In this document: positions 1-18,441 of the stretch, piece by piece
Layout: every line of letters begins with the position of its first letter
How positions within the stretch are numbered: position 1 is the first letter of the stretch
Source: a bacterium
GTDB taxonomy: Bacteria; SZUA-182; DTGQ01
Length of the DNA stretch: 22,051 bases
Direction: 5' to 3'
NCBI GenBank assembly: GCA_040752695.1
Contig: JBFMGO010000005.1
Span: forward strand, 31,722 to 53,772
Translations under genes and position numbers: made by a program
The notes under the pieces: model-generated
What the model was told of the DNA's origin: nothing
The model's input: only the letters and a program-made list of their open reading frames with translations
Databases searched by the model: none

Positions 1-3000
1 CCCGATCTCCCCCTTGAATTCCCAACTCCTGCCTCAGGGAATGATTCAAAGCTTCGGCTTTGACCAGGGAGCAGTCGAATGATCCGGTGATCTTTTGAGA
101 TGAAACAATCAAAATCTCCTGATCCCCGACTTTCCCTTTCAGTTTCGCCGAAGATACTTCCAGGCGGTCGCCAGCGGCAATATCCGCCTCGCCGCTTTGC
201 ATGGTTATCTTCACGGTATCATAGGCATGCCCGGCTGTATTCAGCCACTCTATCCGAGCGGGCTTGCCCCATTTTTTCCTGATTGGGGTGCCTTCAGCGC
301 TATCATCGCCATAGACATCGAAAACAGCACTCACATCGTTTGGATCTTTGACTACATCAGGCCCATTGGTGGACACATTGAAGGTAATCGTCAACTCGTC
401 CCCATCGTCGATCCCTGCGCCGCCACTTTTTGCATTCCATGCCTCAGCCTTGACGATACGCGGATTGACATGAGGCAGGGCAGTCACTCCGTTGAATTTT
501 ACTTCGTGGAAGAGATAGCCAAGGGGTCCCGGACCTACCCGCCATCCCCTCACTCTGATATACCTGCCTATGGCATCGAACTGAGGGCTGTTGTGCTTCT
601 CACCCTTGATCAGCGTTACCTTCCACGGCCCATCTGCCGTGTCAGTTAATGAAGAGTCCGGACTGTAGAGCGGTGAATTCTGGTCACACTCCGGATCATC
701 GCTAACCCATACCCTGACCGCATCTTCGCCAGTACCGGTCCCTCCGGTTGTGATTTGAATCTGGAAAATCCGGTAAACTGCACCAAGATCATAGGTAATC
801 TCTCCCTCAGGAGACGATTGCAGGAACCAGAAAGTGTTCGGATCGCCATCGATCGAGCGGTAATTTTCGTGGTTACGCGTTCCCTGATGATTCGAGCAGG
901 AAACCGCCTTCGGACTGATCCAGACAGGCCCAAAGGAGCCTTCCAGCACAACAGAGCCGGTTATGGTACTGCCTGATATGTCGCGGATGTTGGGATCACT
1001 GAGAGTGACCGTATCGCCAACAGCAATTGTGGAAGCGGGAAGTCCGCTGCCAAAGGTCACGGTCAGCGTATCGGCAACAGGACTGCTCCATTCGATTTTC
1101 TGTACCTGGCCCCAGGAATGATCGTTATTCAGCCGCAGGGCCTGGCTTATCGTGGCAGGAGTCAGGTGAGCTCCATCGCCAAGAGTGGGACCTGAGAAGG
1201 AAATGATTACCCGGTCTCCCTCACGGGCATCCAACTCCTCGTCAGGTGAGTGATTCTCGGCATAAGCCTTGACCACTCCGCAGTCAAAGGTTCCCGTTAT
1301 TTCCCGGGCCGAGAGCACCGGCACATCGGCTCCGCCGACTTTTCCCTTGAGTTCTCCCGATCTCACCACCAGGTAATCACCCGCAGTGATGGCAGCATCC
1401 TGCTGCACGACAGTACCCAGGGTTATCCTTACCGTATCGTTTGAATGTCCACCCGCATCCGACCACTCTATCTTTCTGAGAGAGCCCCATTGCTTCCTGA
1501 CCGTGTAGTACAAATCTCCATAGACTTCGAAAGCGGATCGTACATCGTTTGGATCATCGATCACCTCAGGGCCATTCGTAGAGGTATTAAAGGTAATGAC
1601 CAGGTGGTCTCCATTATCGATCCCCTTGCCTCCGAAAGAACTATTCAAAGCCACGGCACCCGCTATCTGAGGATCATTCCTGTTCGGATCAAACGATCCT
1701 TCCAATAAAACCGACCCTGTCAGCGGATTCCCTGCCTGATCAAGAACTGCGTCCTTCCCAAGAGTGATGAAGTCGCCAACCGCAATCGTGGAAAAAGATG
1801 TATCACTGTCAAAGGTTATGGTTAAGGTATCGTGTACGGGTGCATTCCACTCAGCCTTCTGTATCTTGCCCCATACATGGCCGTTGCTCAATGGCAGTGC
1901 CTCATCGAGTGAGGCTGCATCTATCTCTTTCTCCGATGTAGATCCTGCAAAGGTGAGAACTACCCGATCTCCCCCTTGAATTCCCAACTCCTGCCTCAGG
2001 GAATGATTCAAAGCTTCGGCTTTGACCAGGGAGCAGTCGAATGATCCGGTGATCTTTTGAGATGAAACAATCAAAATCTCCTGATCCCCAACTTTCCCTT
2101 TCAGATTTTCCAAAGCACCTTTATTGAAATTTCCCGGTATCACCTTCAGCCAGTCACCAGAAGCGATGAGGGAATCCCTGCTCAGGACGATCGTTACCGT
2201 ATCATTGGAATGACCAGCCGCACAAGACCATTGTATGCCTTCTTTCGTGAGCGGTCCCCATTCTTTCCTGCTTCCATCTTCATAGACTTCGAAAACTGCC
2301 CGGACACTGTTTGGATCTTTGATTACCTCGGGGCCATTAGTAGCTACGTTAAAGGTAATGGTCAACAGCCTTCCATTCTCGGTCCCTCCGCTGCCACTCG
2401 GCGTAATAACACTGCCTTCAGCCTTGACGATGCGCGGATTGACATAGGTCAGGGCAGGCACTCCCTTGAATTTTACTTCGTGGAACAGTTCCCCAAGAGG
2501 ACCGTGGCCTTCCCGCCATCCCCTCACCCTGATATACCTGCCTATGGCATCGAACCGGGGGCTGTCGTATTCTTCTTTTTCGATGAGCGTTACCTTCCAC
2601 GGCCCATCTGCCGTGTCAGTTAATGAAGCGTCCGGACTGTAGAGCGGAGAATTCTGGTCACATTCCGGATCACCGCTCACCCAGACTCTGACCGGAACCG
2701 AGCCGCTGCCTTTACCAGTCGTGATCTGGACCTGCGAAATCCAATAGAATGCACCAAGATCATAGGTAATCTCGCCTTCTACAGCTCCGCCCAGGAACCA
2801 GAAAGTATTCGGATCTCCATCGATCGAGCGGTAATTCTCATGTTTGAAGGTTCCCTGATTGTTCGAGCACAATACCGCCTTCGGGCTGCTCCAGTAATCA
2901 ACCGGGGCAAAGGAGCCTTCCAGTACAACAGAGCCGGTTATGATATTGCCTGATATGTCGCGGATATTGGGATCACCGAGAGTGATCGTATCGCCGACGG

Positions 3001-3650
3001 CAATTGTGGAAGCGGGAAGTCCGCTGCCAAAGGTCACGATCAGGGTATCGGCAACCGGGCTGCTCCATTCGATTTTCTGTACCTGGCCCCAGGAATGATC
3101 ATGATTCAGCCGCAGGGCCTGGTTTATCGAAGCGGGAGTCAGATGAGCTCCATTGCCAAGGGTGGGACCTGAGAAGGAAATGATTACCCGGTCTTCCTCA
3201 CTGGCATCCGGCTCCTCTCCCGGCGAGTGATTCTCGGCATAAGCCTTGACTAAGGAACAATCGAACGTTCCAATAATCTTCCGGGGCGAAGCGGTTGTAA
3301 TCGTAACGTTTTTATCACCGACTATCCCGGAGAGTTTTCCCGGTATCACTTTCAGATAACACCCGGCAGCAATGGCATCCAAAGAAGTATCTTTGCTTAA
3401 GATTATCCTTAACGTATCATGAGAGCGGCCTCCTGCATCCGACCACTCTATACCCCTGAGAGGCCCCCATGCTCTCTTGCGGGTGCAGCCCTCGTCTTCA
3501 TAGACTTCAAAGGAAGCCGTTACATCACTCCGGTCGCTGATCCCTTCATAGCCGTTCGTAGCCGTAGAGAAAGTAAGGACCAGTTGGTCACCGTCATCGA
3601 TTCCCCTGCCGCCGGAAGGATTGTTCAGGGCTTCGGCCCGCAGGAGAAAA
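1..3650 (-). repeat. Intragenic tandem duplication, unit ~1.96-1.98 kb (~655-660 aa): [A-B-discoidin-A'-B'], nearly two copies visible
   Basis: 1-142 matches 1963-2104 with one mismatch (offset 1962). 611-660 matches ~2585-2634 (offset 1974). 1261-1273 matches 3238-3250 (offset 1977). All offsets are multiples of 3. Protein sub-repeats of ~115-135 aa share KA.A.N...GIDDGD.L.ITF...WG...EWS...DT..I...I..GD...GSF. Confidence 0.93.
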
Positions 3651-6600
3651 TCGATATCATTGGGATCTACGTGAGGTGACCGGAAATACTTGCCTGAAGT
3701 CGGATGGCAGGTATTGCAGATTCCGGTCTTCGAAACCCCGACATTGCCTCTCGGAAACTGTTCGAAGACCACGCCGCCGATACTGTTGACCAACTTGGTA
3801 TCCTCTGGCGGATCGGGTAAATAATGGAAATTGATTCCGGGAACTTTATCAGGAGGTTCGGAACCGGGAGTACTGATAAGCTCTCCGTGCCGCATCATCC
3901 TGGGCGATGGTGAACCATGCACGTTATGACATGCCGGGCAACTGATAGAGGAATCTCCGGTATTGTCCCAACTGGAAGTCCAGTCCAGGGCAGTACCGTT
4001 AAACCTGGCTTTCAAATGGTGGAGGTGATAGTTCGGATTCTTGTTGGGATCATAAAAGTTCGTTTCTCCGGGACCATCGGCATCACCCAATAAAGCGCCG
4101 ATATCCTGGTGACACTTGAAACATAAGGCAAAGTCCGTCCAATATTTTTGAGGATCATTGTTCGGACTGGGTGGATTCGTAGAGTTCGGTCTTCTGGGAA
4201 TATCCAGAGGCCGGGTTAAATTCGTTACCTCTTTTTCCGGCCAGTTCACTGCCTTGAGCCGGTATCCATCCCGGTAGTTATCTTGGGAGGCTGAATAGGT
4301 TCTGTGGGTATGATCAATGTGTCGCAGACTCCCGTCATGACAGTCAGTACAGGATGCTCCGGCACCGTTTGCCCCGGATGCCGCATAGTGATCGGCTCTG
4401 CTCAGACCGTGCCCGGTCACAAAATAACCGTATCCCGTTCCATACGGGGTTATCGCTTTCTCATCCCCGGCCACATTCGGGGCCTTTACATTCGGATCTG
4501 TCTGACACAGATCGCTCCGGCTGCTGGCAGGCGCTTTGTCGTGGCAGCCGACACACCACCCGTTTATCCCCGCTTTCAATATCAGGCTGTCATCTGCTGC
4601 TGCCTCGTACACGCCGGTCTTCCAGTTATCCTTGGCATCCTTTACGCCATCGTAGTCCCCTGCCGGGCTATGGCATGAATCGCATACCGTGGTTGAGCCA
4701 AAATCATGTCCATCTCTGAAGCTTATTTCACCGTCGCAATGGGCTGGATCATCATGAGATGAATGACACTCGCTGCACCACCTGTCCTGAGCACCAGCCG
4801 GCTCCCATGAATGGGGTCCCCTTTGAGCGATCAAGTGAACATAATGGCCATCCTTGGCCATGGTCTTATCCTGATCGTTGGGATCATACACTTCATGACA
4901 GGTCCCGCAAACCGATTGATTCTGCGATTGGCCATCCTCCGGATTCCAATCCCAGGAGACGGGGAGAGGCTCATTATCACTGAGACGGCGATGACAGGAA
5001 ACAGTACAGGTGTGATTATTATCACTGCCGGTACCACCGGAAGATGCCAGCCTGAACGGCTTATTCTTACTATTACTGCTGCCATTACTATTATTATTGC
5101 CATTATTACCGGTCGTATAGGTCCACTGTGGATCAGGCAGGCCATCGGGACCAGCGAAATAGACGTCTTTCCGGCCATTGACATGGAAAAGATGCTTCCT
5201 TTCATCCGTGACATCAACCCGGATGGTATTCGAGTTTACATTGCAGGTGTTTGCATGGCAGCGGTTGCACAGGATCTTCGCCTGTCCGGCTTTTTCCCCC
5301 TTGGTCACCACGACGTGCTGGCGGTGGTGAGAGGAAAGCTGCCATTTTTCCGGCACCGGGTATCCGGGATCAGGATCGAGAAACCCATGACAGCTATTGC
5401 AGGCTGCACCCGTGTCGGGATTCTTGTCAGGATCATCCCAGGTCAGGTGAAAGGATGGGTTCGCTACATAGCTGTTCTCCCGATAATAGGCAGAGTTCGG
5501 ATCATCGGAAATGCTGAGCGGATTGGCGTTGCTGTGACACCAGACAGCACTGCACGAGTTGACGATAAACGTACTCTGGTCGGTCCACATGACGCAGGTA
5601 CCGTTCCCTCTGGTATCGTCGCACTTTCCGGGATTAGCCGCATTATCATACGAAGGATCATACGAACGAGCGTCATATTTCGGTTGAGGCGTGATGAAAG
5701 GAGCACCCTCCTCGTAAGGATTCCGGTAAAGGGACCGATACTGGTAAGATCCGCCATGAATGGACCACTCTTTCCAGTCAATCGAATCGTCATGGAAGCA
5801 TATCTCCACCCACTGATTATCCGAATCAGGCACATGATGTGTGGCATGATTGACATGCGTAGCCTTATGCCCTGTATCCGTACTCAGCCACGAATGACAC
5901 ATTTCACAGGCAAAAGCATAGGTGGTGGTATGAATCTTGTGAGGGCCGGTATACTTCTGGATGTCAGCCTGCCAGACTCCCTGGTCTGCATGGCATATGT
6001 TACAGCTTCCGGGTGAGAGATGATGGACATTCTGTGATTTTTCATCGATATAGCTTCCGCCGTGGCAATCGTGGCAGCTTTCCTTTGCCCCCTTCTTATG
6101 CTCTGCAAAGTCAGGGATGGGCTTCATAAAAATCCCTTCGACATACCTGTCGTCACACACTTCATCGCTGTCCTTCGGAGTGCAGTCGGAAGGAACATGG
6201 CAGCCGAAACAGAACCTGCGGGAGGAATTGGGATCGGTAAGCGTATCTCCCAGATTATCCCAGCCTGGCCGCTCATCGGAAAGGAGGTGCCGGTTGGGGT
6301 TCCTATTTTCATTTTCGTTTCCGCCATGCCCCAGCGAGCCATGAGGATTATGGCAGTTTGAGCAGGCCAGTTTATCGCCCGGCCTTGCGAATCCGTCTGA
6401 ACTTTTAATTTGATGCCCGGCATAGTTGTCAGGCTGCCGGTAGTAGGTTTCGATTTTCTGGGTCTCCTCCCTCATTCCATTGGGGGCCCAGGCAGGATCG
6501 TCGCCATGGCAGTTAAAGCACAGCTCGTAGTTGTTAGGGTCATTGGCCGAGTTTACCGTTCCTTTATAGGAAGCTTTGAGCATATCGTATTTACTGCCTG

Positions 6601-8119
6601 TGCCGTGGGGTTTATGACAGTGCATACAGGAGCCCTCGTCGCAGTCCGGGCCGCATAAATCGCTTTTCATCTTCCCGTGCGGGGAGAAATTCGGATCGTC
6701 GATATGAACGTAAGCAGCCTGCCCTGGCCATCTTACCCGGTAGTCCAATCCGCCTTTGCGCTTTCCCGTTGCCGCATCATTTGCTTCAAAATAACCGCCA
6801 TACGGCTTGTCTTTTTCCTCGATCCGTATCAGTATTCCCTTGTCGGACAATTCCTCGGTCTTCGTATAAAACTTTGGAGTTTTCCCATGACACTCGGCGG
6901 ACAGACAGAAAAATTTGTTATTCTCCCCAAACAGGTTATAGGTGTAATAAGAACGCAATCCGCTCGGGTCTCCCAATTGAGGATCGCGCGGTGTACCATG
7001 CTGCTGATGGCAGTGTTCGCATTCACCTCTTTGGAATTTATCAGTCCGGTATACCCCGAAATTGGGATCTGCATGGGGACTGGATTCGTAGTTCCCGTCA
7101 CCGATATTATGACATGCCTGACAGGTATCCCGCATATACTGGCCATCTTCCCTCTCGGGATCAGCAGTATTCTCCCACAAAAGCCCATACTCGTGAGTCG
7201 ATCCGTGGGCCTTATGGCAACTGCCGCAAAAAGGCCGGTCTTCCCCCCGGTTATCCGGATATATCGTTACAGCCGGAGGGCTGGTTGGAATCCCTGATGC
7301 ATTCTGTGATGACCACTGCTCATGAATGGAGGGGTTGTCTCTCATGGCAATGGTATTGGTTGGATGAAGATTCCAGTGCTTATCACCCTCCCCACTATGA
7401 TGAAACGCCGGATTGAAGTCCGGATGACAGGCGGCACACCAGGAAGAAAGCCCTACGCTTTTTTCCCCGCCCGTTCCCTCTTCCAGCCGATAAATAATAT
7501 TGGATACATCGTAGCGGGCAAAGTCATTGGGGTCCATGAGGTCAACCAGTATCTGAATGCCCTTTCCTTCATTCCCGGCCACAGAGGTGCCTGCAAAATA
7601 GGTTACCGGGGAATCTGCAGAATCAGTCAAAGGTTTTGGGCGAAGATTCCGATAATATGAATTGCCATGGGGATCATGACAGGAAGTGCACGACAATTTC
7701 TTATCCCATCTTCCAGGGTAGCCTGGAGGCGAAAGGGTACTTCCCATCGTGTGGCCATGGACTAAAGGGTGATTGGGATCCACGGTTTTATCCAGTTCAT
7801 CCAGATGTCCGGCGGAACTCTGATAATTACGGGATGTTGGATGTATGACATCCGGTGCCTTACGGTCATATCCGTCATGACACATGAGGCACATTTCGGA
7901 GGTGATATTTTTTAAGAGAAAATCCGAAGGCGCATCTCCCCAAGCACGGGCACCAGCAGGGACTTGCGGGATCTTGCCATCCTGACTGAAATGCAGGGTA
8001 TGGCAGTCGTAGCAATTCAGGTTCTTGCCCTTGACATGATAATTCCCTGCTTTAACGAAAGAAAGAGGGAAGATTGATAATACACAAAACCATACAATGG
8101 TAGAGACAACTTTCTTCAC
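2..8119 (-). CDS. Giant secreted multiheme cytochrome c (27 heme motifs; N-terminal OmcS-like module) with C-terminal beta-repeat/discoidin tail; 3'-partial, >=2706 aa
   Basis: Manual translation from GTG at 8119 (in-frame TAA upstream at 8138-8140; alternative GTG at 8131): MKKVVSTIVWFCVLSIFPLSFVKA|GNYHVKGKNLNCYDCHTLHFSQ... I found no stop in this frame down to base 2, and the ORF track lists no closed ORF in this frame. Motifs in order: CYDCH, CLMCH, CTSCH, CAACH, CGSCH, CQACH, CEHCH, CLSAECH, CMHCH, CFNCH, CSNCH, CFGCH, CHDCH, CNICH, CEMCH, CSAVWCH, CNSCH, CNRCH, CTVSCH, CGTCH, CSECH, CDSCH, CVGCH, CTDCH, CFKCH, CPACH, CNTCH (approx. 8014 down to 3704). No heme motifs below ~3700. Confidence 0.95.
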   Translation of the reverse strand, partial: MKKVVSTIVWFCVLSIFPLSFVKAGNYHVKGKNLNCYDCHTLHFSQDGKIPQVPAGARAWGDAPSDFLLKNITSEMCLMCHDGYDRKAPDVIHPTSRNYQSSAGHLDELDKTVDPNHPLVHGHTMGSTLSPPGYPGRWDKKLSCTSCHDPHGNSYYRNLRPKPLTDSADSPVTYFAGTSVAGNEGKGIQILVDLMDPNDFARYDVSNIIYRLEEGTGGEKSVGLSSWCAACHPDFNPAFHHSGEGDKHWNLHPTNTIAMRDNPSIHEQWSSQNASGIPTSPPAVTIYPDNRGEDRPFCGSCHKAHGSTHEYGLLWENTADPEREDGQYMRDTCQACHNIGDGNYESSPHADPNFGVYRTDKFQRGECEHCHQQHGTPRDPQLGDPSGLRSYYTYNLFGENNKFFCLSAECHGKTPKFYTKTEELSDKGILIRIEEKDKPYGGYFEANDAATGKRKGGLDYRVRWPGQAAYVHIDDPNFSPHGKMKSDLCGPDCDEGSCMHCHKPHGTGSKYDMLKASYKGTVNSANDPNNYELCFNCHGDDPAWAPNGMREETQKIETYYRQPDNYAGHQIKSSDGFARPGDKLACSNCHNPHGSLGHGGNENENRNPNRHLLSDERPGWDNLGDTLTDPNSSRRFCFGCHVPSDCTPKDSDEVCDDRYVEGIFMKPIPDFAEHKKGAKESCHDCHGGSYIDEKSQNVHHLSPGSCNICHADQGVWQADIQKYTGPHKIHTTTYAFACEMCHSWLSTDTGHKATHVNHATHHVPDSDNQWVEICFHDDSIDWKEWSIHGGSYQYRSLYRNPYEEGAPFITPQPKYDARSYDPSYDNAANPGKCDDTRGNGTCVMWTDQSTFIVNSCSAVWCHSNANPLSISDDPNSAYYRENSYVANPSFHLTWDDPDKNPDTGAACNSCHGFLDPDPGYPVPEKWQLSSHHRQHVVVTKGEKAGQAKILCNRCHANTCNVNSNTIRVDVTDERKHLFHVNGRKDVYFAGPDGLPDPQWTYTTGNNGNNNSNGSSNSKNKPFRLASSGGTGSDNNHTCTVSCHRRLSDNEPLPVSWDWNPEDGQSQNQSVCGTCHEVYDPNDQDKTMAKDGHYVHLIAQRGPHSWEPAGAQDRWCSECHSSHDDPAHCDGEISFRDGHDFGSTTVCDSCHSPAGDYDGVKDAKDNWKTGVYEAAADDSLILKAGINGWCVGCHDKAPASSRSDLCQTDPNVKAPNVAGDEKAITPYGTGYGYFVTGHGLSRADHYAASGANGAGASCTDCHDGSLRHIDHTHRTYSASQDNYRDGYRLKAVNWPEKEVTNLTRPLDIPRRPNSTNPPSPNNDPQKYWTDFALCFKCHQDIGALLGDADGPGETNFYDPNKNPNYHLHHLKARFNGTALDWTSSWDNTGDSSISCPACHNVHGSPSPRMMRHGELISTPGSEPPDKVPGINFHYLPDPPEDTKLVNSIGGVVFEQFPRGNVGVSKTGICNTCHPTSGKYFRSPHVDPNDIDFLLRAEALNNPSGGRGIDDGDQLVLTFSTATNGYEGISDRSDVTASFEVYEDEGCTRKRAWGPLRGIEWSDAGGRSHDTLRIILSKDTSLDAIAAGCYLKVIPGKLSGIVGDKNVTITTASPRKIIGTFDCSLVKAYAENHSPGEEPDASEEDRVIISFSGPTLGNGAHLTPASINQALRLNHDHSWGQVQKIEWSSPVADTLIVTFGSGLPASTIAVGDTITLGDPNIRDISGNIITGSVVLEGSFAPVDYWSSPKAVLCSNNQGTFKHENYRSIDGDPNTFWFLGGAVEGEITYDLGAFYWISQVQITTGKGSGSVPVRVWVSGDPECDQNSPLYSPDASLTDTADGPWKVTLIEKEEYDSPRFDAIGRYIRVRGWREGHGPLGELFHEVKFKGVPALTYVNPRIVKAEGSVITPSGSGGTENGRLLTITFNVATNGPEVIKDPNSVRAVFEVYEDGSRKEWGPLTKEGIQWSCAAGHSNDTVTIVLSRDSLIASGDWLKVIPGNFNKGALENLKGKVGDQEILIVSSQKITGSFDCSLVKAEALNHSLRQELGIQGGDRVVLTFAGSTSEKEIDAASLDEALPLSNGHVWGKIQKAEWNAPVHDTLTITFDSDTSFSTIAVGDFITLGKDAVLDQAGNPLTGSVLLEGSFDPNRNDPQIAGAVALNSSFGGKGIDNGDHLVITFNTSTNGPEVIDDPNDVRSAFEVYGDLYYTVRKQWGSLRKIEWSDAGGHSNDTVRITLGTVVQQDAAITAGDYLVVRSGELKGKVGGADVPVLSAREITGTFDCGVVKAYAENHSPDEELDAREGDRVIISFSGPTLGDGAHLTPATISQALRLNNDHSWGQVQKIEWSSPVADTLTVTFGSGLPASTIAVGDTVTLSDPNIRDISGSTITGSVVLEGSFGPVWISPKAVSCSNHQGTRNHENYRSIDGDPNTFWFLQSSPEGEITYDLGAVYRIFQIQITTGGTGTGEDAVRVWVSDDPECDQNSPLYSPDSSLTDTADGPWKVTLIKGEKHNSPQFDAIGRYIRVRGWRVGPGPLGYLFHEVKFNGVTALPHVNPRIVKAEAWNAKSGGAGIDDGDELTITFNVSTNGPDVVKDPNDVSAVFDVYGDDSAEGTPIRKKWGKPARIEWLNTAGHAYDTVKITMQSGEADIAAGDRLEVSSAKLKGKVGDQEILIVSSQKITGSFDCSLVKAEALNHSLRQELGIQGGDR

Positions 8120-8269
8120 GTCTAATTCCACAGCGCATTATACATCGTTAAATTTACGGGGGGAGCACTCTTCACTTTACATTACGATGCAGATAACTCC
8201 TGACCTGATCATCTTATCTATGCTTTTCTCATAAGCCCATCCAAGTACACGTTTTTCCCTTGTCCACGC

Positions 8270-9277
8270 TTACATTTTCTTCTTCTCTCCTTGCATTCTC
8301 TTCTTCTCTCCTTGCCCTTTCGTTCCCTCGATCTCATGAGAACTATCTGAAATCTTCTGAAATACCTGAAATCTATTGCTACTTTTTTCTAATATATATA
8401 TCCTGTCCTGGTTATCAAAGTCAAGATCAATGGGAAAGCAAAATTTGCCCGCCTCCGTCCCATACGAGCCAAAACCGAACTGAAGTTTTCCCTGCTGATC
8501 AAATACCTGCACCCGGTGGCGGAAAGCATCCACCACCCATATCCTCTGAGAGCGATCTACGCAAACAGCCTGCGGGAACGAAAAATCTTCCTCGCGTTGG
8601 CCGTGTTTCCCAAAAGAATACAGATACTTGCCTTCTGTGGTAAACACCTGTACAGGAATCCCCTGAGCATCGGTAAGGTAAATTTTCTCTCCGTGAAAAC
8701 AGATATCGGTGATAAATTGAAATTTTCCCTCTTCCGACCCTCTGCCGCCGAACCGAAAAGCTAACGAGCCATTGGGCTCAAACACCCATATTTCATCAGC
8801 TTCTCTGTTTATTGCATATATCCTGCCTGCGGGGCCGAGTACGAATCTTCCTGCGGAAAAGGCATGTTTCTTCAAAAAATCAGCGGAAGGAACAGGATAG
8901 AGAAATTTCCCCTTGGCGTCAAAAACCTCCAGGGATTCTTTTTCCCGGCAGCTTACATAAATTTTTCCCTCTGGATCGGTGAATATACACACTGGAGCGG
9001 CAAAGGGATGCTCGGCATGGAAGATCCCCAGCGCTTCTCCTGAGAGCGAAAAAATGGCAACCTTCCGGTTACCCGTGTCCGCAATATAAATTTTTTTTTG
9101 CGAGCTATCCAGAAACATTCCCTGAGGTCGATTGAAGGAGTGGCTTTTCTGGAGCCCGTGCACCTCGAAAAGCCACTCTATCTTATCCTTCGCGATCGCC
9201 TCTTGAAAAGGAAAGAAAATGCTTAAAACCAACAAACAAAAAAGAAGAATACTGCAACCTGCTCTCATACCAGCCAA
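8270..9277 (-). CDS. Secreted NHL-repeat (6-bladed beta-propeller) protein
   Basis: Signal-peptide-like N-terminus (ILLFCLLVLSIFFPFQEAIA). NHL repeats: FNRPQGMFLD..IYIADTGNRKVAIF, FSFPQAVCVD..IWVVDAFRHRVQVFD, GKFCFPIDLDFD..IYILEKSSNRFQVF. Start may be the ATG at 9268. Confidence 0.92.
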   Translation of the reverse strand: MAGMRAGCSILLFCLLVLSIFFPFQEAIAKDKIEWLFEVHGLQKSHSFNRPQGMFLDSSQKKIYIADTGNRKVAIFSLSGEALGIFHAEHPFAAPVCIFTDPEGKIYVSCREKESLEVFDAKGKFLYPVPSADFLKKHAFSAGRFVLGPAGRIYAINREADEIWVFEPNGSLAFRFGGRGSEEGKFQFITDICFHGEKIYLTDAQGIPVQVFTTEGKYLYSFGKHGQREEDFSFPQAVCVDRSQRIWVVDAFRHRVQVFDQQGKLQFGFGSYGTEAGKFCFPIDLDFDNQDRIYILEKSSNRFQVFQKISDSSHEIEGTKGQGEKKRMQGEKKKM

Positions 9278-9371
9278 CGTCTCTCTTTCGGTTTACAACA
9301 ATAGTATCCACACTCTCAAGCAAGATGAACCGCCCGGTCGTTATATACTTCCTTGCTGCGGCTTTACGTTG

Positions 9372-10685
9372 CTACTTCTGCTTGCTATACTTTTTCGTAT
9401 GACAGCGGAAGCAACCGCCCCCATCCGTAGAAGTTGTCGACATCTTGCTGTAGTCCCAGCGAAGAGCGTCATCATAGGGCGATCCATGAGCGCGATGACA
9501 CGATACACAAAGGACTACACGCTTGGCTTTCTGAAGTTCACCGCTTCCCCCTCCCCTGGTTATCGAGGGAAAGCCTACCGGTACTTCCTGGGAATAGTCC
9601 GCTCCCGGATCTCCCGGATAATCTTTATACTCGGATTCAGCATCCTGCCTCATCGCTATATCTGTCGGGTGCCTTTTCCAGGGCGAAGCCATCTCATCGC
9701 TCTGAGTATCTGTTCCCTTTAATCCTTTGAAGCTGTGGAAGCCGTTTTCACTGTCATCTTCCTTGCATCCATGGCACTCGCCACACAGGCCGTTAATGGA
9801 GCGGTCCGGACCGGGATCGGTTTTACTTCCCTGCAATTCCTTATCCGTTCCCTGATAAATATTTACGTCCTCACCGGCGAGGTCTTCCTGCCTGAGAAAC
9901 TTGTTCGTATGGTCCCCGAACTCCCAGTTACTGGCAACCCGCCCCTTGACATGGTAAAGCATCCGATAGCTCGATGCGATGGTATTTCCATCCCGAAATC
10001 TATCCTCGTAGGCTTCCGTTGCAGGGCTGTGATGCCCGCCTTTAATTGAAACCAAAGGGTCTTCGACGTCCCGTTTCCCGTGACAGCCGGATACTCCCGC
10101 GCAGGTTAATTGCTTGTCAGCACCGCCGATACAGTCATCCGTCCCTCCGGGCGGGGTAATACCGAGCAGTTCATCCTCATTATCGTCGCTGTCGCCCATG
10201 CCCACGACGTTATGTCCCTTTCGGCAGCTTTTTCCGCCTGCATCGTCCTTGCCTTTCGTTACATAATAGTATGTCCCGGCAGCCGACAGTTTATTATCGT
10301 TGGCATTGGGATCAACATTTACCTGAGGCGCATCATACTCATCCTGCGGATCTTTGAAGTATCGCCCGTCATCGTTTCTCTTATGACATCCCAGACAGGG
10401 ATTTTTCGCTGATACGTCAGCCCCTTTAATCAGATATGCCTGGGGACCCACGTCTGTTCCTTCGATCTCGTTGACAGAAACCCCTTCCTGACTATTGTGC
10501 ATGGTATGGCATTCGGAGCAGGGTCCCTTTACTCCCGCTTCGGACTGCCCGCTCTGCATAAGGACGACTCCACCGACGACCACCAATACAAGCAGATGAT
10601 AAAAAACCCTTCTCATTCTCAAGTTTAAGCGCCCCCTTTCAAACAATTCACCTTTTATCAACCTTCTTCTATTCCCGCGCGACAT
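9372..10685 (-). CDS. OmcS-like hexaheme c-type cytochrome (5 CXXCH + 1 CX5CH)
   Basis: Signal peptide ending ..QSEA|GVKGP. Motifs CSECHTMHNS, CLGCH, RKGHNVV..PPGGT..QLTCAGVSGCH, SYRML, CGECH, WKRHPT, CVSCHRAHGS, CFRCHTKK occur in the same order as the motifs I recall from Geobacter OmcS (CEGCHTMHNS, RKGHNIV, APGGT..QLHCSSCH, AYRIL, RHPA, CLSCHRAHAS, CNKCH). Alternative start ATG 10616 (MRRVFYHLL). Confidence 0.88.
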   Translation of the reverse strand: MSRGNRRRLIKGELFERGRLNLRMRRVFYHLLVLVVVGGVVLMQSGQSEAGVKGPCSECHTMHNSQEGVSVNEIEGTDVGPQAYLIKGADVSAKNPCLGCHKRNDDGRYFKDPQDEYDAPQVNVDPNANDNKLSAAGTYYYVTKGKDDAGGKSCRKGHNVVGMGDSDDNEDELLGITPPGGTDDCIGGADKQLTCAGVSGCHGKRDVEDPLVSIKGGHHSPATEAYEDRFRDGNTIASSYRMLYHVKGRVASNWEFGDHTNKFLRQEDLAGEDVNIYQGTDKELQGSKTDPGPDRSINGLCGECHGCKEDDSENGFHSFKGLKGTDTQSDEMASPWKRHPTDIAMRQDAESEYKDYPGDPGADYSQEVPVGFPSITRGGGSGELQKAKRVVLCVSCHRAHGSPYDDALRWDYSKMSTTSTDGGGCFRCHTKKYSKQK

Positions 10686-10800
10686 AATATCCTATTAGTA
10701 TTTCGACATTTTTTAAAAAAATATACTACCTGCTTCAGAAGGTCGTCTTCACTTTTTTACTTCCTCCATCTGCAACGGGGGGAGCCTTCCCACGCATCCT

Positions 10801-11757
10801 CTACCGAGAATGAATGGTCAATACCTGGAGACGGTGGTTAAAAGAGTCCGCAATAACCAGCCGCTGCTCCTTATCCAAAAAGGTCTGATTCGGATGACTA
10901 AACCACCCGGCCTTTTCTCCCAGGCCTCCGTATTCCTGTAAAAACACTCCGTCCAGATTATAAATTGACAGAGTATGTCTCATATAGTCAGTCACAAAAA
11001 TTAATTCTTTGGCGCGATCGACCGTAATCCCCGCTGGCCGGCTTAATTTCCCGAATGACCCTCCCTTTTGCCCGAATCCGAATAGAAAGGTATCCGGATT
11101 TTCGTAAACATAAACCTTTCCCATTGTTTCACTCAGAAGGTATATTCTCCCGCTCGAATCGAGAGTGACGTGAGTTATGGCTGCCAGCTTTGGAGGCATT
11201 CCTTCCTTGCCCGGCTCCAGGGGAGTGATAGCTGCCTTGAGCTTGCCCTCCGGATCGAGGATCAGCACTCCTTCTTCTGTTCCGGTCGCCAGATAAAGGT
11301 TATCCTTCTGGTCGATGATCAGATCCTTTGCATAACGGACCTTGCCTTTCGTCATCTGATCCAGATCGATCTTCCTGAGAAGTTTTCCTATGGAATTGAA
11401 AACCAGAATTCCTCTGTCTGCGTCCGATACATACATATTACCCTTTTGATCAACAGCCACCGCAGTCGGCCCTTTCAGGCCGTTCGATGTGTCCAGCCGA
11501 CTCAAAGGGAGGTAATTGCTATCATAAATAAAAACAGATTTGTTATACAAGTCGACTACATACATGTTACCTGTACTGTCAACGTAAACATCTACAGGTT
11601 GCCCTAACGCAAGTTGATTATTAAATTGGCGAATAATTATGGCAGGGCTGATATTCTCTTTCAAATATTCAGCAATGGCCGCATCCGACAGGGGAGCACA
11701 CAGGAGCAGCCATAACCACAAGACACTCCAGGCAATAAAAAAGCCGTCTCTCTTCAT
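10801..11757 (-). CDS. Secreted NHL-repeat (6-bladed beta-propeller) protein
   Basis: Signal peptide MKRDGFFIAWSVLWLWLLLCAPLSDA; AAGGA RBS upstream. NHL repeats: LGQPVDVYVDSTGNMYVVD, LKGPTAVAVDQKGNMYVSD, GKLSRPAGITVD..IFVTDYMRHTLSIY, FSHPNQTFLD..LVIADSFNHRLQV. Confidence 0.92.
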   Translation of the reverse strand: MKRDGFFIAWSVLWLWLLLCAPLSDAAIAEYLKENISPAIIIRQFNNQLALGQPVDVYVDSTGNMYVVDLYNKSVFIYDSNYLPLSRLDTSNGLKGPTAVAVDQKGNMYVSDADRGILVFNSIGKLLRKIDLDQMTKGKVRYAKDLIIDQKDNLYLATGTEEGVLILDPEGKLKAAITPLEPGKEGMPPKLAAITHVTLDSSGRIYLLSETMGKVYVYENPDTFLFGFGQKGGSFGKLSRPAGITVDRAKELIFVTDYMRHTLSIYNLDGVFLQEYGGLGEKAGWFSHPNQTFLDKEQRLVIADSFNHRLQVLTIHSR

Positions 11758-12112: not shown

Positions 12113-13870
12113 GTGAGTAATAAGCCGAAATCTGATTCGCAAAATAAAGAACTGACCAGAGAATTCATGAAGGCTTTTCTCAATAAATATACCTATGACC
12201 CAAGGAGTAATCTCTCGGCACGATGGGCTCTTTTATGGTGTACGCTGCTTTTGATTTTAGGTATCCTGCATCTTTCCTATCCGACATATTCCATAATAAC
12301 CACAGGGGTAGATACCATGTTCGGACTTATCGCCATTGCCCTCTATCCCACCCTTGGTACCTCCGGGACACTCTACAGGCTGAGAGAGGAAACTATCAAG
12401 GCCTACAGTAAAAATCTGGAAAAGCTGGTTGAGCAGAAAACCGTACAAATCCGCAAGAAAGAGAAAAAGTACCGGACACTTTTCGAAATAGTACCTGCCG
12501 GGATGTTCCGTGTAACCGAGGACCTGGAGATTGCCGACATTAACGGCTATGCTCTGGATCTCATTGGCTTGCCTCAAGAGCAGGTCATTGGACGAAAATG
12601 TCTCGATATTATCTGCAAGTGCGAGGGAGCATGTGCATTATCCGGTTTGACTGGGGAAATTGCCACCAAAGAAGTCGCCTTACCATCTCCAGACGGCAGC
12701 CAAAACTATGTGGTAATCAGTTGCCGTAACTGGGAAATGGAGGGCAGATCCAGTATCATCGGCAGTATCACCAATATCAATGAACGGAAAAAATTAGAGG
12801 AGACGATTTTAGAAAATAAACAAAGGCTGGAATCTATCTTCGATGGAATGGACGATGGAATCATTGTCATCGGCAGGGAATTTAAAGTTGTCGCCATTAA
12901 CCGCAAGTGGGCATCGATTATCGGAGCCCCGCCGGATGATCTGATCGGGAAACGCTGCACAGAGGTTATCACTCCCGCCTGCCAGGATATTGCCAAAAGG
13001 GTTTTTCTTACGGGACAGAAGGAGAGAAAAGAACTTATCCTCCTTCATAAAGGAAATGGGCAGCAACTTTATGTGGATATTATCTATGCGCCCATCCTTA
13101 ACAAGGAAACCCGTGTAGAGCAGGTTATCGGAGTTCTCAGGGATATCACGGAAAAAAAGCAAATGGGAGACCTTTTGCTTCGCTCCGAACGGCTGGCCAC
13201 CATGGGAGAAATTGCCGCTAATGTTGCTCATGAAATCAATAACCCCATGGGCATTATTCTGGGATTTACCCAAAGACTGCTGGGGCGAATGCCTGAAAGC
13301 AGTATGGACCATGAAGAATTGCAGATTATTGAGCAGGAATGCATCCGATGCAAGAAAATTATCACTGACCTGTTGGATTTTGCAAGGCCCAGTATTCCCC
13401 AAAAACGCCTTCTCCAGGGAGAGAAGTTGGAGGAAATCATTAACACATGCCTCAAGCTCCTTGAGTATCAGATTAATAAAAGAGGCATTCATGTCAAGCG
13501 CAATCTGGCGCGCGGATCAATGATTAACATTGACACCCTTCAATTTCAGCAGGTCTTGATGAATATCTTTTTAAATGCTATTCAGGCTATGCCGGGAGGC
13601 GGAAACCTGCGGGTATCCGTTTCGACTCAAACCCAGCATGCCCGACATCCCAATGGGCTTTCCCTGATCGCAGTTGAGGATACTGGGGTGGGTATTCCTC
13701 CTGAAAATATGGCCCGTATCTGCGAACCATTTTTCTCTGCCGGCAAACCCAACGGGACAGGGCTTGGACTGTCGGTATCAAAAAAAATCATCGAGGCCCA
13801 TGGCGGAACCCTGGATATAGCGAGCGAAGTTGGGAAGGGCACTAAGATGACGATAGAATTACCCCTGTAA
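12113..13870 (+). CDS. Membrane-anchored PAS-PAS sensor histidine kinase (NtrB/AtoS-like)
   Basis: Two hydrophobic segments, a coiled coil, two PAS/PAC domains (ending SITNINERK and LRDITEKK), H-box AHEINNPMG, N-box NIFLNAIQAM, G1 EDTGVGI, F-box EPFFS, G2 GTGLGLS. Confidence 0.95.
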   Translation: MSNKPKSDSQNKELTREFMKAFLNKYTYDPRSNLSARWALLWCTLLLILGILHLSYPTYSIITTGVDTMFGLIAIALYPTLGTSGTLYRLREETIKAYSKNLEKLVEQKTVQIRKKEKKYRTLFEIVPAGMFRVTEDLEIADINGYALDLIGLPQEQVIGRKCLDIICKCEGACALSGLTGEIATKEVALPSPDGSQNYVVISCRNWEMEGRSSIIGSITNINERKKLEETILENKQRLESIFDGMDDGIIVIGREFKVVAINRKWASIIGAPPDDLIGKRCTEVITPACQDIAKRVFLTGQKERKELILLHKGNGQQLYVDIIYAPILNKETRVEQVIGVLRDITEKKQMGDLLLRSERLATMGEIAANVAHEINNPMGIILGFTQRLLGRMPESSMDHEELQIIEQECIRCKKIITDLLDFARPSIPQKRLLQGEKLEEIINTCLKLLEYQINKRGIHVKRNLARGSMINIDTLQFQQVLMNIFLNAIQAMPGGGNLRVSVSTQTQHARHPNGLSLIAVEDTGVGIPPENMARICEPFFSAGKPNGTGLGLSVSKKIIEAHGGTLDIASEVGKGTKMTIELPL

Positions 13871-13879
13871 GGAGTGCTT

Positions 13880-15274
13880 ATGAAAAAAATTCTCATCGTG
13901 GACGACGAACCGAACTTTCTCACTCTCTTGGGCAGAACACTCAAAGATGAGGGTTATCAGGTTACTACAGCCGCGACCAGTTATGAAGCCATTTCTCTTG
14001 CCGAGAATACCGTTTTCGATACCCTGATCACCGATCTTGCCATGCCGGAAGTCAACGGGATAGAATTAATGGAGCGGTTCCGGAAATTATATCCGAACCT
14101 GCCTATCATCATTATCACCGGAGTGGGTACTGTCGAGCGGGCAGTTGAAGCCATGAAAAAAGGTGCGTATGATTTTATTACCAAACCATTTGAGCTGGAT
14201 AAAATCCGTACCACGGTAAAACGGGCACTCGAATATGGAGAGCTTCACCTCGAACTGCATCATCTGAGAAAAGAGGTTCAAAATAAGTACGACTTCAGCA
14301 ATATTATTGCTAAGAGCAAGTGTATGCAGAATATCTTCAAACTCATCGATCAAGTAGCGGACAGCATGGCTAACGTTTTAATTCAGGGGGAGTGCGGAAC
14401 AGGAAAAGAACTGATTGCACGGGCCATTCATTACCGAAGCATCCGAAGGGATAAACCCTTTCTGGCAATCGATTGCAGTGCCATACCGGAATCTCTTCTG
14501 GAAAGCGAGTTGTTCGGACACACCAAGGGCTCCTTCACCGGCGCTGTCAATGCCCGTCGAGGACTCTTTGAGGAAGCATCCGAAGGGACGATTTTCCTTG
14601 ATGAAGTAGGCGACATTTCTATTGCCACTCAATGCAGGCTCCTTCGGGTAATTCAGGAAAAGGAAGTAAGACCCATAGGCAGTAATCAGGCCAGCAAAAT
14701 CGATGTCCGCATTGTCACGGCTACCAATAAGGATTTGAGAGACTTGATTAAAAAGCAGACCTTCCGTGAAGACCTCTATTTTCGGGTCGCCATTATTCCC
14801 ATTTATCTTCCGCCACTTCGAGAGAGGAAAGAGGATATTCCTCTCCTGACCGCTCACTTCATTGAAAAATACAGCAGGCTTAACCAGAAAAAAGCGAAAG
14901 GGATTTCCCGGGAAGCATTGCTTGCCCTCACCCAGTATGACTGGCCTGGGAATGTCCGTGAACTTGAAAACACGATCGAGCGGGCACTCCTTATCTCCGG
15001 TGATGGTCAAATCGATCTTCCTCATCTGTTCATGGATAATATCATGATCGATGACTATCCCTCCGGCGATACCGACCAGACGAACGATGAGCAAAATACC
15101 CTGACCAAGGCCATCGAAAAGGCGGAAAAAGATTTTATCATTCAGGTCTTGAATACCGTAAATTTTAACCGAACGCATGCGGCTAAAATTTTAGGTATCA
15201 GCCGGAGAACTCTTTATGATAAAATTGAAAAGTATAATCTCAAAAGCATTTCACCCAATGGGATCGATGAATAA
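13880..15274 (+). CDS. Sigma-54-dependent response regulator (REC-AAA+-Fis HTH; NtrC/AtoC family)
   Basis: ATG 13880 preceded by AAGGAG. REC (ILIVDDE..TDLAMP..KPF), Walker A GECGTGKE, ESELFGHTKGSFTGA, Walker B IFLDEVGD, FREDLYFR, WPGNVRELEN, HTH NRTHAAKILGISRRTLYDK. Confidence 0.96.
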   Translation: MKKILIVDDEPNFLTLLGRTLKDEGYQVTTAATSYEAISLAENTVFDTLITDLAMPEVNGIELMERFRKLYPNLPIIIITGVGTVERAVEAMKKGAYDFITKPFELDKIRTTVKRALEYGELHLELHHLRKEVQNKYDFSNIIAKSKCMQNIFKLIDQVADSMANVLIQGECGTGKELIARAIHYRSIRRDKPFLAIDCSAIPESLLESELFGHTKGSFTGAVNARRGLFEEASEGTIFLDEVGDISIATQCRLLRVIQEKEVRPIGSNQASKIDVRIVTATNKDLRDLIKKQTFREDLYFRVAIIPIYLPPLRERKEDIPLLTAHFIEKYSRLNQKKAKGISREALLALTQYDWPGNVRELENTIERALLISGDGQIDLPHLFMDNIMIDDYPSGDTDQTNDEQNTLTKAIEKAEKDFIIQVLNTVNFNRTHAAKILGISRRTLYDKIEKYNLKSISPNGIDE

Positions 15275-15363: not shown

Positions 15364-16641
15364 ATGAAAGTATTAGTAATCGGAGGAGGCGGCCGTGAAC
15401 ATGCCCTGGCCTGGAAGATCCGCCAAAATGAGGAAGTATCAGCCTTGTACGCTATTCCAGGAAACGCCGGTCTGGCGGAAATAGCTGAATGTTACTCTCT
15501 TGAAGTAACCGATATCACCAGACTGGCCAGGTTTGCCAGAGAAAAAGAGGTTGACCTTACCGTTGTAGGACCGGAACTGCCGCTTTCTCTCGGCATCGTC
15601 AACGAATTCGAAAGACAGGGACTGGCTGCTTTCGGACCTGTCAGCGAGGCTGCCGCAATTGAATCAAGCAAAGCTTTTGCCAAAAAATTAACCACGGAAA
15701 ATAACATTCCTACCGCCCTCTATGAAATATTTTCCGATCCCAAAGAAGCACAAAAGTATGTTCGCCATATCAGCCGTCCACTCGTTATCAAAGCCGATGG
15801 TCTGGCCGCCGGAAAAGGGGTCCTGATTTGCCCCCACACCGAAGACGCCCTGCGGGCAATCGAACTGATCATGGTACAAAAGGCCTTCGGCCAGGCAGGC
15901 GAGCAGATCATCATCGAAGAACTCCTTAAGGGCGAAGAGGCATCTTTCCTTGCTTTTACCGATGGAAATACGATTCTCCCCATGGCATCTTCACAGGATC
16001 ATAAAGCTGCCTTCGATGGTGATCAGGGACCTAACACCGGAGGCATGGGAGCTTACTCTCCGGCACCGGTCATCAGTGAAGAAATGCACCAGAAAATTAT
16101 GACCAAGATCATGATTCCCGCAGTAGAGGGAATGGTCAGGATGGGAATCGATTATCGCGGAGTCCTCTATGCGGGCCTGATGATTCAGGATAACGAGCCC
16201 GTGCTCCTGGAATTCAACGCCAGGTTCGGCGATCCGGAAACCCAGGCAATTATCGGGCGACTTGAGACAGATTTAATCTCTATCATGCAAAAGGTACTCA
16301 AAAGAAAACTTCACGAGGTAAGCCTGCGTTGGCACGATGGAGCATCCACCTGCGTAGTTCTGGCCTCTGAAGGCTACCCCGGCCCATACCCTAAAGGAAG
16401 ACAGATCAATGGATTGCAGGATGCAGACCAGGTTCCGGGGGTGACCATATTTCATGCAGGAACGGTCAAAAGGGGAGATAAAGTCCTGACCTCCGGCGGA
16501 AGAGTCCTTGGAGTGACCGCAGTTGGTGAGACCATTGCCGAATCCATTTCCCGGTCTTATACGGCAATAGAGAAAATCCACTTTGATGGAATGCACTACC
16601 GGAAAGATATCGGAAAGCGTGCTCTTCAGCCATGCCCTTAA
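15364..16641 (+). CDS. purD: Phosphoribosylamine--glycine ligase (GAR synthetase)
   Basis: MKVLVIGGGGREHALAW, PGNAG, VVGPELPL, ESSKAFAK, VIKADGLAAGKGV, QDHK..DGDQGPNTGGMGAYSP, EFNARFGDPETQ, GGRVL, YRKDIG; AAGGAG RBS. Confidence 0.98.
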   Translation: MKVLVIGGGGREHALAWKIRQNEEVSALYAIPGNAGLAEIAECYSLEVTDITRLARFAREKEVDLTVVGPELPLSLGIVNEFERQGLAAFGPVSEAAAIESSKAFAKKLTTENNIPTALYEIFSDPKEAQKYVRHISRPLVIKADGLAAGKGVLICPHTEDALRAIELIMVQKAFGQAGEQIIIEELLKGEEASFLAFTDGNTILPMASSQDHKAAFDGDQGPNTGGMGAYSPAPVISEEMHQKIMTKIMIPAVEGMVRMGIDYRGVLYAGLMIQDNEPVLLEFNARFGDPETQAIIGRLETDLISIMQKVLKRKLHEVSLRWHDGASTCVVLASEGYPGPYPKGRQINGLQDADQVPGVTIFHAGTVKRGDKVLTSGGRVLGVTAVGETIAESISRSYTAIEKIHFDGMHYRKDIGKRALQPCP

Positions 16642-16803
16642 AACTACACGCAGAAAACGATACTCAAAGAGTGAAAGCCGATACTGGCCCTGATGTGCCA
16701 AAGAGAACCCCGCCCATCTCGAGTGAACCGCAGGAAGGCTCCCTTTTTTGGTGCTGCCTGTGACCTCTTTCGCGGAAGGGGAGAAAAGAGCCGAGAAACA
16801 TTA

Positions 16804-16832
16804 TTGACAAGTGTATGGAACTATGTTAGTTT
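16804..16832 (+). promoter_or_regulatory. Probable sigma-70 promoter upstream of tRNA-Arg
   Basis: TTGACA (16804-16809), 17 bp spacer, TAGTTT (16827-16832) preceded by TGn. Confidence 0.55.
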
Positions 16833-16978
16833 ATTAGAAAAAAGTATGATTTAAGGGGAAGCATAACCCAAGGTGAAAGTGTAATCCCAGATGAAAATGC
16901 AGCCCCAGGCTGAAGCAAGTATAAGGAAGACCATGAGGCAGATGCCAAGCCGAGGGGAGTAAAGGCTAAAGAAAATTT

Positions 16979-17052
<74 letters not shown>

Positions 17053-17063
17053 CTTATAAAATC

Positions 17064-17101
17064 AAGGGGGCTTCGGGAAAATCGATCCGAAGTCCCTTTT
17101 T
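17064..17101 (+). terminator. Probable intrinsic terminator after tRNA-Arg
   Basis: Hairpin GGGGCTTCGG-N10-CCGAAGTCCC (with a G:U pair) followed by TTTTT. Confidence 0.65.
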
Positions 17102-17312
17102 GCTTTATGGGCCCTTTTTATGCGCAATTTTTGAGAAGCAGAAAGCATATCCTGAAAGAGCAGGAGCATACCCATAGCTGGCCGGCTCATTTCTTTGCAG
17201 TAATACCCATAGCTGGCTTGATCATTTCTCAGAAGAATGCCGGGACCCCGCATTGCCGGGAAAGCCGGACCCACTTTTCGAATAGGGACTTAAGAAAGAA
17301 TAAAGAAGCAAG

Positions 17313-17382
17313 TTGACAGATCCCTTCAATACCTGTAATATTAACCAAACACTTGACTTAGGGGTCTCATAATCCCGATAAT
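17313..17382 (+). promoter_or_regulatory. Candidate tandem sigma-70 promoters for the gsp operon
   Basis: TTGACA(17313)-17 bp-TAATAT(17336) and TTGACT(17353)-18 bp-GATAAT(17377). Confidence 0.45.
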
Positions 17383-18407: not shown

Positions 18408-18441
18408 CAGTGTGCGATGTCCTGCGGGAGGAAGGTATTCG

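Follow-up and report, generated by a model that had tools for sequence, protein, structure and literature searches.

A giant multiheme cytochrome with an OmcS-like head in an uncultured bacterium: a possible end-piece of cytochrome nanowires

Among described systems, the one closest to the locus analyzed here is that of OmcS in Geobacter sulfurreducens (GSU2504; PDB 6EF8/6NEF). Our locus lies in a stretch of 22,051 nucleotides from an uncultured bacterium (contig JBFMGO010000005.1, positions 31,722 to 53,772; the whole stretch is called the window below), where four consecutive, co-oriented open reading frames (ORFs) on the minus strand encode an NHL propeller, a six-heme cytochrome, a second NHL propeller and a giant cytochrome, in the order given by an initial annotation of this DNA. 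Both cytochromes very probably have the six-heme fold of OmcS, with an equivalent of its residue His16. The Geobacter omcS locus includes, as does the window, a sigma-54 response regulator and a histidine kinase (GSU2506/2507; PMC10599522), and the Geobacter osc operon holds companions for folding (OscH), secretion (OscE, F, G) and periplasmic cytochromes (OscI/J), as well as OscD for morphology and OmcS-like paralogues (PMC13194489, citing Shen et al. 2025), a set to which genes around the window may correspond in kind. The window differs from Geobacter in that its small cytochrome has a CX5CH motif at heme 3, in that the identity of its cytochromes to OmcS is only ∼17–23%, and in its OmcS-headed giant fusion, of which the accessible literature on Geobacter makes no mention.

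Other likenesses lie further afield. In Desulfovibrio ferrophilus IS5, the predicted extracellular multiheme cytochromes DFE_0450 and DFE_0464 stand beside the NHL genes DFE_0451 and DFE_0463, much as the cytochromes do here, and are accompanied by periplasmic multiheme cytochromes. Homologues of this type occur in sulfur-cycling Thermodesulfobacteria and Deltaproteobacteria, a spread similar to that of our small family, which does not imply that the subfamilies are identical; a giant fusion is not described for the IS5 clusters in the accessible parts of these papers (PMC5815863, PMC9769857). The OmcS-like cytochromes of the oetABI cassette in syntrophic sulfate reducers are likewise OmcS homologues of uncultured anaerobes and are suggested to assemble into filaments that take up electrons released by partner cells, but they are small, stand-alone proteins, and no head–stalk–adhesin fusion is described for them (PMC10553843). 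Finally, the proteins MHC-A, -B and -C of anaerobic methanotrophic archaea (ANME) resemble the giant in that they join very long heme chains to domains of the surface-layer or carbohydrate-binding kind, and are proposed to reach or recognize partner cells. They differ from it in being archaeal, in having S-layer and pectin-lyase-like domains, in lacking NHL/osc companions and in having no close OmcS homologue reported in the accessible text (PMC9012536).

What is new in the window is a cytochrome that starts with an OmcS-type head, is extended covalently by further hemes and carries an adhesin tail; the OmcS/osc-type system itself is known. The literature on OmcS nanowires, NHL and other beta-propellers, OmcS-like clusters and multiheme–discoidin proteins, full texts not covered, yielded no description of an OmcS-headed fusion, and we found no characterized protein with the head, stalk and lectin-repeat architecture for which the initial annotation knew of no precedent. 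It is an open question how cytochrome nanowires are begun, ended and attached to cells or targets; work on the OmcE filament published in 2026 asks how assembly ends and suggests chaperone–usher anchor subunits as a model (PMC13712944). The giant, which combines a nanowire-type module, a long heme chain and adhesin domains in one polypeptide, is a concrete, testable candidate for an end-piece. Its architecture shows that OmcS-like units can be continued within a single polypeptide, which is relevant to engineered protein wires.

OmcS homology of the small cytochrome and the giant's head

The small hexaheme protein and the first ∼320 mature residues of the giant very probably adopt the OmcS fold, and with the same high confidence the locus, which belongs to an uncultured Gram-negative bacterium, is one for extracellular electron transfer of the OmcS/osc type. 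As a single query, the small protein matches OmcS (6ef8) with a phmmer E value of 6.8e-9; the head as a single query finds no OmcS match in the PDB, and its family profile is needed. The head-family profile (the head and 73 stand-alone relatives) aligns with OmcS 6EF8 at E 2.2e-28 (profile positions 31–318 to OmcS 1–352), and the small-family profile (46 members) at E 2.6e-19 (33–349 to OmcS 7–348), which bears out the initial assignment of both cytochromes to the OmcS type. The two proteins are also related to each other. The small protein is colinear with the first 400 residues of the giant (23% identity, 417 columns, E 2e-8), with heme motifs 1–5 in register, and their family profiles align with 99.95% probability (hhalign, E 2.2e-38, 309 columns).

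Comparison of predicted structures with the OmcS filament structure gives the same answer, 6ef8_A being the best match of both proteins. For the head, the AlphaFold2 (AF2) model (predicted local distance difference test score, pLDDT, 77; predicted template modeling score, pTM, 0.76) finds 6ef8_A first in Foldseek (E 1.2e-4) and aligns with it in VIA over 244 residues with Z 13.0 and a root-mean-square deviation of 3.6 Å, the runner-up having Z 5.7. For the small protein (pLDDT 66, pTM 0.70), the best Foldseek match is again 6ef8_A but is weak (E 1.6e-2, template modeling score (TM) 0.32); the VIA alignment covers 263 residues with Z 9.9 and a deviation of 5.2 Å, and the next VIA match, with Z of at most 5.3, involves the signal helix only.

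The heme motifs follow the OmcS order in both proteins. The head has six CxxCH, at residues 40, 81, 148, 232, 302 and 337, and the small cytochrome has five CxxCH and one CX5CH, which stands third. This site, CAGVSGCH (residues 195–202, window 10080–10103, minus strand), has C195, G197, G200, C201 and H202 invariant in 46 of 46 aligned family members, a pattern that marks it as an unusual predicted heme-binding motif characteristic of the small protein's OmcS subfamily. The initial annotation had given both cytochromes the same six-heme motif series. This stands for motifs 1–5, which are colinear, and fails in that the small protein has a CX5CH and not six CxxCH. The 27 hemes claimed for the giant agree with our count of 24 CxxCH and three CX3-4CH, all within residues 40–1476. 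Both cytochromes have Pfam matches of the doubled-CXXCH and c7 types; an NCBIfam search gave no match above cut-offs. Genome-wide, 44 ORFs besides the giant carry at least four CxxCH, with 463 motifs in total, and several of them exceed 900 codons; the source organism is very rich in multiheme cytochromes.

A search with residues 1–420 of the giant returned 462 representatives at E ≤ 1e-3. Among the best 150 of these, 133 are proteins of 280–450 residues matched end to end, 124 of them with exactly six CxxCH; nine are at least 600 residues long and seven shorter than 280. Since most relatives of the head are free-standing and matched end to end, the head corresponds to a complete OmcS-like protein, with the fusion point just past heme 6. 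In a quick FastTree tree of 135 modules, made without bootstrap, the small family forms one clade (support 100), and the head falls into another subfamily of OmcS proteins, one that is closer to OmcS itself; named Geobacter OmcS is absent from the 120 stand-alone head relatives listed in the profile search. All proteins of at least 1747 residues fall into one group (support 89 and 81), which includes P0140, labeled partial by its source. The shorter extended forms (697–955 residues) sit elsewhere in the tree, so the heme extension arose several times, with at least four changes.

The head-family profile also reaches beyond OmcS. Its positions 33–157 match the OmcE filament protein 7tfs over hemes 1–3 (E 3.1e-6), and it matches a “putative multiheme cytochrome c,” 9yuq_N (E 8.5e-5). 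OmcS and OmcE have been stated to show no sequence similarity, although their hemes superimpose (PMC9473688); the match may be a sequence-level trace of their common descent.

The linking histidine, the extended chain and their conservation

In OmcS, all 12 axial heme ligands are His residues, of which 11 come from the subunit itself and one from its neighbor (PMC6584659; PMC9473688). Our alignments place residue 16 of OmcS as the second His of its CEGCHTMH motif. We take this His16 to be the residue that the neighbor donates. Its aligned counterparts are H47 in the head's CYDCHTLH and H63 in the small protein's CSECHTMH, both adjoining the first heme motif and each invariant in the alignment of its own family. 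CxxCHxxH is found at the first motif in 127 of the 133 stand-alone head relatives noted above. At the level of sequence, the equivalent of His16 is kept in both cytochromes.

A similar arrangement recurs directly after the head. Heme 7 of the giant has the motif CEHCHQQH, 34 residues past heme 6, and CxxCHxxH is present at heme 7 in 16 of 16 extended relatives (12 giants and four shorter forms), 31–43 residues past heme 6, whereas only 118 of the 463 motifs (25.5%) in the genome's other 44 multiheme ORFs have this form; in all 16, the OmcS-like module lies at the extreme N terminus. We infer that heme 7 may stand in for heme 1 of a next subunit, its second His closing heme 5 of the head in cis. 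If heme 7 mimics a next subunit in this way, the C-terminal face of the head would be occupied, leaving only the N-terminal face, with H47, free. With its C-terminal face filled by the stalk, the head could dock only through that N-terminal face, and the giant would be limited to one end of a filament.

Beyond the hemes, the repeat/discoidin tail of the initial annotation is confirmed. Phmmer segmentation gives the architecture X-Y-D, X-Y, X-Y-D, X-Y, where X and Y are related immunoglobulin (Ig)-like units of ∼120–130 residues and D is a discoidin domain. Two discoidin domains lie at window positions 2447–2905 and 476–925. Pfam F5/8 type C (PF00754) matches residues 2411–2528 (E 1e-10; 42.2 bits, with the gathering score at 28.2), and phmmer finds a second copy at residues 1743–1895 and a third past a gap in the assembly, where the end of a Y, this last D and a C terminus ending in APPSPP follow. 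In the Atlas, X-Y lies near Big_5/SWM_repeat clusters (0.91–0.92), a lead only.

The headed protein is narrow in range, found only in this uncultured lineage, whose relatives pass from members of the same class straight to organisms that share no more than the domain. A large collection holds 11 further headed proteins of 1747–2555 residues, with head identities of 34–64%, 13–44 heme motifs and tails of discoidin, fn3/Big_1/invasin or LamG type. At E ≤ 1e-20, the head occurs in 12 of 41 genomes (that of the window, G000, and 40 relatives), once per genome: in five of five genomes of its own family, four of six of a second and the single genome of each of two further families (one of these a stand-alone form of 349 residues), and in none of 27 others. 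The order NHL, small cytochrome, NHL, headed protein is kept in six related genomes from at least three families. Two genomes of the same genus match the window exactly, from the regulators through the four genes to a Big_1 protein. The row found in four genomes from other genera has NHL, small cytochrome, NHL and headed protein (1751–1862 residues) followed by a barrel and then, where the contig continues, by lipoproteins; extra NHL–small pairs stand upstream, and one of the four contigs starts at the second NHL gene. An NHL gene pairs with each OmcS-like gene, in the window as initially proposed and also in relatives, where homologues of the first propeller adjoin OmcS-like genes. Both propellers are well above the Pfam gathering score of 20 bits, reaching 71.9 and 62.2 bits, and share 23% identity (283 columns, E 1e-23).

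The adhesin-like part of the system is exchangeable. Residues 147–1195 of a separate 1203-residue protein, encoded directly downstream of the giant, are 35% identical (E 3e-161) to the tail of the sister-genus headed protein P0132 (residues 730–1752). Because the tail of one genus is homologous to a separate gene of another, the head and hemes are the constant part and the adhesin-like part can be fused or separate. The same split-or-fused relation with the 13-heme headed proteins of sister genera links the 1203-residue protein functionally to the cytochrome.

The small family is much wider. Of 5460 candidate proteins, 1224 belong to it at E ≤ 1e-3, and 557 of 639 candidate stretches in species genomes were confirmed, in Thermodesulfobacteriota, Nitrospirota, Desulfobulbia and others. 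We compared its best 79 distant loci, which are 30–37% identical and many of them short, scoring companions with phmmer (E ≤ 1e-5). The second NHL protein has relatives in 51 of 79, the peptidyl-prolyl isomerase (PPIase) of the island in 45, the two paired-CXXCH cytochromes in 54 and 55, and the lipoproteins in 28 to 53, two of these being found in 50 and 53; the 546-residue barrel as query matched none of the 79. An NHL ORF lies within 500 nucleotides on the same strand in 24 of the 49 distant loci that have at least 2.5 kb on both sides. A headed giant was found in none of the 79, all 25 matches of the head being to the small-family ORFs themselves.

Possible roles of the giant

Our preferred reading, held tentatively and with less than even confidence, is that the giant is the end-piece of an OmcS-type wire built from the small subunit. 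What favors it is that the head is always N-terminal, that its orphan His is conserved, that a motif resembling a pseudo-subunit follows in cis, and that the head has an NHL partner of its own. The OmcS homology of both proteins, the linkage of their genes in related genomes and an export context downstream (barrel, lipoproteins, PPIase and periplasmic multiheme cytochromes) also speak for it. The initial annotation, which saw the small protein as the filament subunit and the giant as docking on it through its head as anchor, nucleator or tip, is partly supported. In such a mechanism, the small protein would be exported and would polymerize outside the outer membrane as OmcS does, with H63 closing a heme of the neighboring subunit. 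The wire would end in the giant as its terminal unit, the OmcS-like head of the giant keeping a free mature N terminus and H47, while its C-terminal face would be continued in cis by heme 7, with CxxCHxxH imitating heme 1 of a next subunit. The head would join the filament only through its N-terminal face and would then block growth at that end. The remaining 21 hemes could lengthen the chain by ∼15–20 nm, assuming OmcS-like packing and a rise per subunit that we presume for OmcS. The Ig-like/discoidin tail might fix the end of the wire to a surface that bears glycans, to a partner cell, to a mineral coating or to the envelope of the producing cell, and the NHL propeller before each OmcS-like gene could be a dedicated helper for that module. 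An analogy, for the mechanism only, may be drawn with the FimH-type two-domain tip adhesins of chaperone–usher pili, in which a subunit-like domain joins the end of the fiber and a lectin-type part binds the target; those proteins and their assembly chemistry are unrelated to the giant.

The proposal in full, in which the giant is an end-subunit dedicated to terminating, nucleating or anchoring an OmcS-type wire, the head plugs in through a trans-ligating His, the next heme motif is a built-in pseudo-subunit and an exchangeable lectin/Ig tail sets the target, is doubtful as a whole. If it is true, it would make the giant the first candidate for a role of this kind.

Several points weigh against an end-piece. 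First, the small protein is a candidate filament subunit whose polymerization is a prediction for the CX5CH subfamily. Second, the AF2 models, whose confidence is middling (pLDDT 66 and 77), contain no hemes, so that they bear on the fold and not on its details. Third, H47 may be conserved for folding alone. Fourth, CxxCHxxH is common in multiheme proteins, so that the in-cis reading of heme 7 is an inference. Fifth, at 23% identity and in separate clades, the head and the small protein need not share an interface. Finally, since none of the 79 distant small-family loci has a headed giant, such wires, if real, mostly manage without one.

Some of the same observations fit another explanation, which we regard as a serious possibility though well short of even: that the giant is a stand-alone surface wire-adhesin, a long extracellular heme chain that receives electrons at the outer membrane and passes them to the target of its tail, in which the OmcS module is merely inherited and makes no contact with a filament. 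The ANME proteins MHC-A/B/C, with 20–86 hemes, show such fusions to surface or carbohydrate-binding domains and have no filament partner in the accessible account (PMC9012536). The independent gain of extra hemes by OmcS-like modules, on at least four occasions, the swapping of tail types between genera and the different subfamilies of head and small protein all speak for it. Acting on its own, the giant would be the bacterial equivalent of those giant surface cytochromes that methane-oxidizing archaea have. Against it stand the constant position of the head at a free N terminus with the His16 equivalent kept, the synteny with small OmcS-like genes across the order, and an NHL helper like theirs.

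Less probable by a wide measure is a trans-envelope conduit, in which the stalk would span the periplasm and/or thread the 546-residue barrel, as in a porin–cytochrome complex or in the manner of the 21–27-heme PCC3 cytochromes, with only the tail outside. In relatives, the barrel and three lipoprotein genes do follow directly after the headed gene. The barrel has no Pfam match, and its Atlas model resembles a TIGR03016-like outer-membrane protein cluster (TM 0.82) and MtrB/PioB (0.68). Periplasmic PCC3 cytochromes with 21–27 hemes are, moreover, thought to be long enough to span the periplasm (PMC10734462). Against this, what is known of the OmcS fold so far comes from an extracellular filament, the island already encodes two paired-CXXCH-rich cytochromes (716 and 490 residues) for the periplasmic role, and in the window's own genus the gene of the 1203-residue protein separates the giant from the barrel.

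The least probable arrangement follows from a possible second OmcS-like module, at residues 1142–1480. Residues 1142–1411 match the head-family hidden Markov model (HMM) with five heme motifs in register (independent E value 7e-11), and this second match recurs in P0126, P0129 and P0135. A giant whose head docked on the second module (hemes 22–27) of the next giant, giving a tail-decorated 27-heme wire, is very improbable, as hhalign (98.2% probability) supports only hemes 1–3 over 102 columns, the matching part of the profile also fits OmcE and so is not specific to OmcS, the module alone finds no PDB match by phmmer, and four of five examined 12–13-heme relatives (P0131–P0134) show only short partial matches past the head.

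The surrounding island and the gene models

The four genes are part of an OmcS/osc-type island of ∼40 kb, a known kind of system, whose features are collected in Table 1. Further downstream on the same strand, the island continues with a small cytochrome, a HAMP protein, a SurA-like PPIase, the paired-CXXCH-rich cytochromes of 716 and 490 residues, a YncE-type propeller and two more cytochromes. In kind, these genes resemble the osc set (a PPIase, a barrel, three lipoproteins and two paired-CXXCH cytochromes), a likeness at the level of description. With its NHL genes and the divergent histidine kinase and sigma-54 response regulator, the locus has both elements that the initial annotation named for the Geobacter locus, an NHL-repeat gene and a two-component pair.

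Table 1. Genes and regions of the cytochrome locus. Positions refer to the window unless prefixed L001.
Feature	Position	Strand	Basis
NHL-repeat beta-propeller 1, 318 residues, exported, heads the gene row	10801..11757	-	Pfam NHL E 2.9e-17
OmcS-family hexaheme cytochrome, candidate filament subunit, ORF of 437 residues	9372..10685	-	OmcS profile and fold match
NHL-repeat beta-propeller 2, 335 residues, exported, directly before the giant gene	8270..9277	-	Pfam NHL E 2.4e-20; position kept in the loci of 6 relatives
Giant ORF, 2710 codons, open at the window edge	2..8131	-	ORF listing
Giant: start and signal peptide, residues 1–28, ending in FVKA	8048..8131	-	Translation; cleavage site by eye
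Giant: OmcS-fold head, ∼residues 29–345, hemes 1–6	7097..8047	-	Profile, AF2, Foldseek, VIA
Giant: heme stalk, residues 346–1141, hemes 7–21	4709..7096	-	Motif list
Giant: possible second, degenerate OmcS-like module, residues 1142–1480, hemes 22–27	3692..4708	-	Head-family HMM
Giant: repeat tail, residues 1496–2710 and beyond	2..3646	-	Phmmer segmentation, Pfam
Sensor histidine kinase with PAS domain, transcribed away from the cytochrome row	12113..13870	+	Pfam HATPase_c, HisKA, PAS; kept in G002
Sigma-54-dependent response regulator	13874..15274	+	Pfam Sigma54_activat E 1.8e-68, Response_reg, HTH_8; kept in G002
fn3/Big_1/invasin-D3 protein, 1203 residues, directly downstream of the giant	L001:15590-19201	-	Pfam
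Outer-membrane barrel, 546 residues, then three small LpoB/GNA1162/CsgG-like lipoproteins	L001:11881-15450	-	Atlas structure (barrel)

All four translations have an N-terminal hydrophobic stretch visible by eye, in agreement with the signal peptides first proposed for them. The small cytochrome is called as a protein of 414 residues in the protein collection, which makes M24 (base 10616) its likely start, and P0126, an orthologue of the giant, begins with MELDVKK. Runs of N flank the window on both sides. Beyond the giant ORF lies a scaffold gap of 100 N (C5:31622-31721), followed by a piece of 203 residues with the same repeats that ends in a stop codon. As the gap falls inside the giant gene and this piece continues it, the giant has at least 2913 residues. 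The assembly breaks here because of near-identical DNA repeats in the tail, spaced ∼1974 nucleotides apart with 84–97% identity (97% between window positions 1–153 and 1963–2115).

A terminator scan of the three intergenic gaps of the minus-strand row found none, and co-transcription of the four genes is plausible. The pattern of a sigma-54 promoter occurs 15 times, where 9.0 ± 3.3 occurrences were expected and 6 of 100 shuffles reached as many; none upstream of the row is convincing. Beside the cytochrome island, on the plus strand at window positions 15364–22050, lie purD and then gspC, gspD and gspE of a type II secretion system. The type II system may or may not export the cytochromes of the island. 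The position of purD is conserved in the same-genus genome G002.

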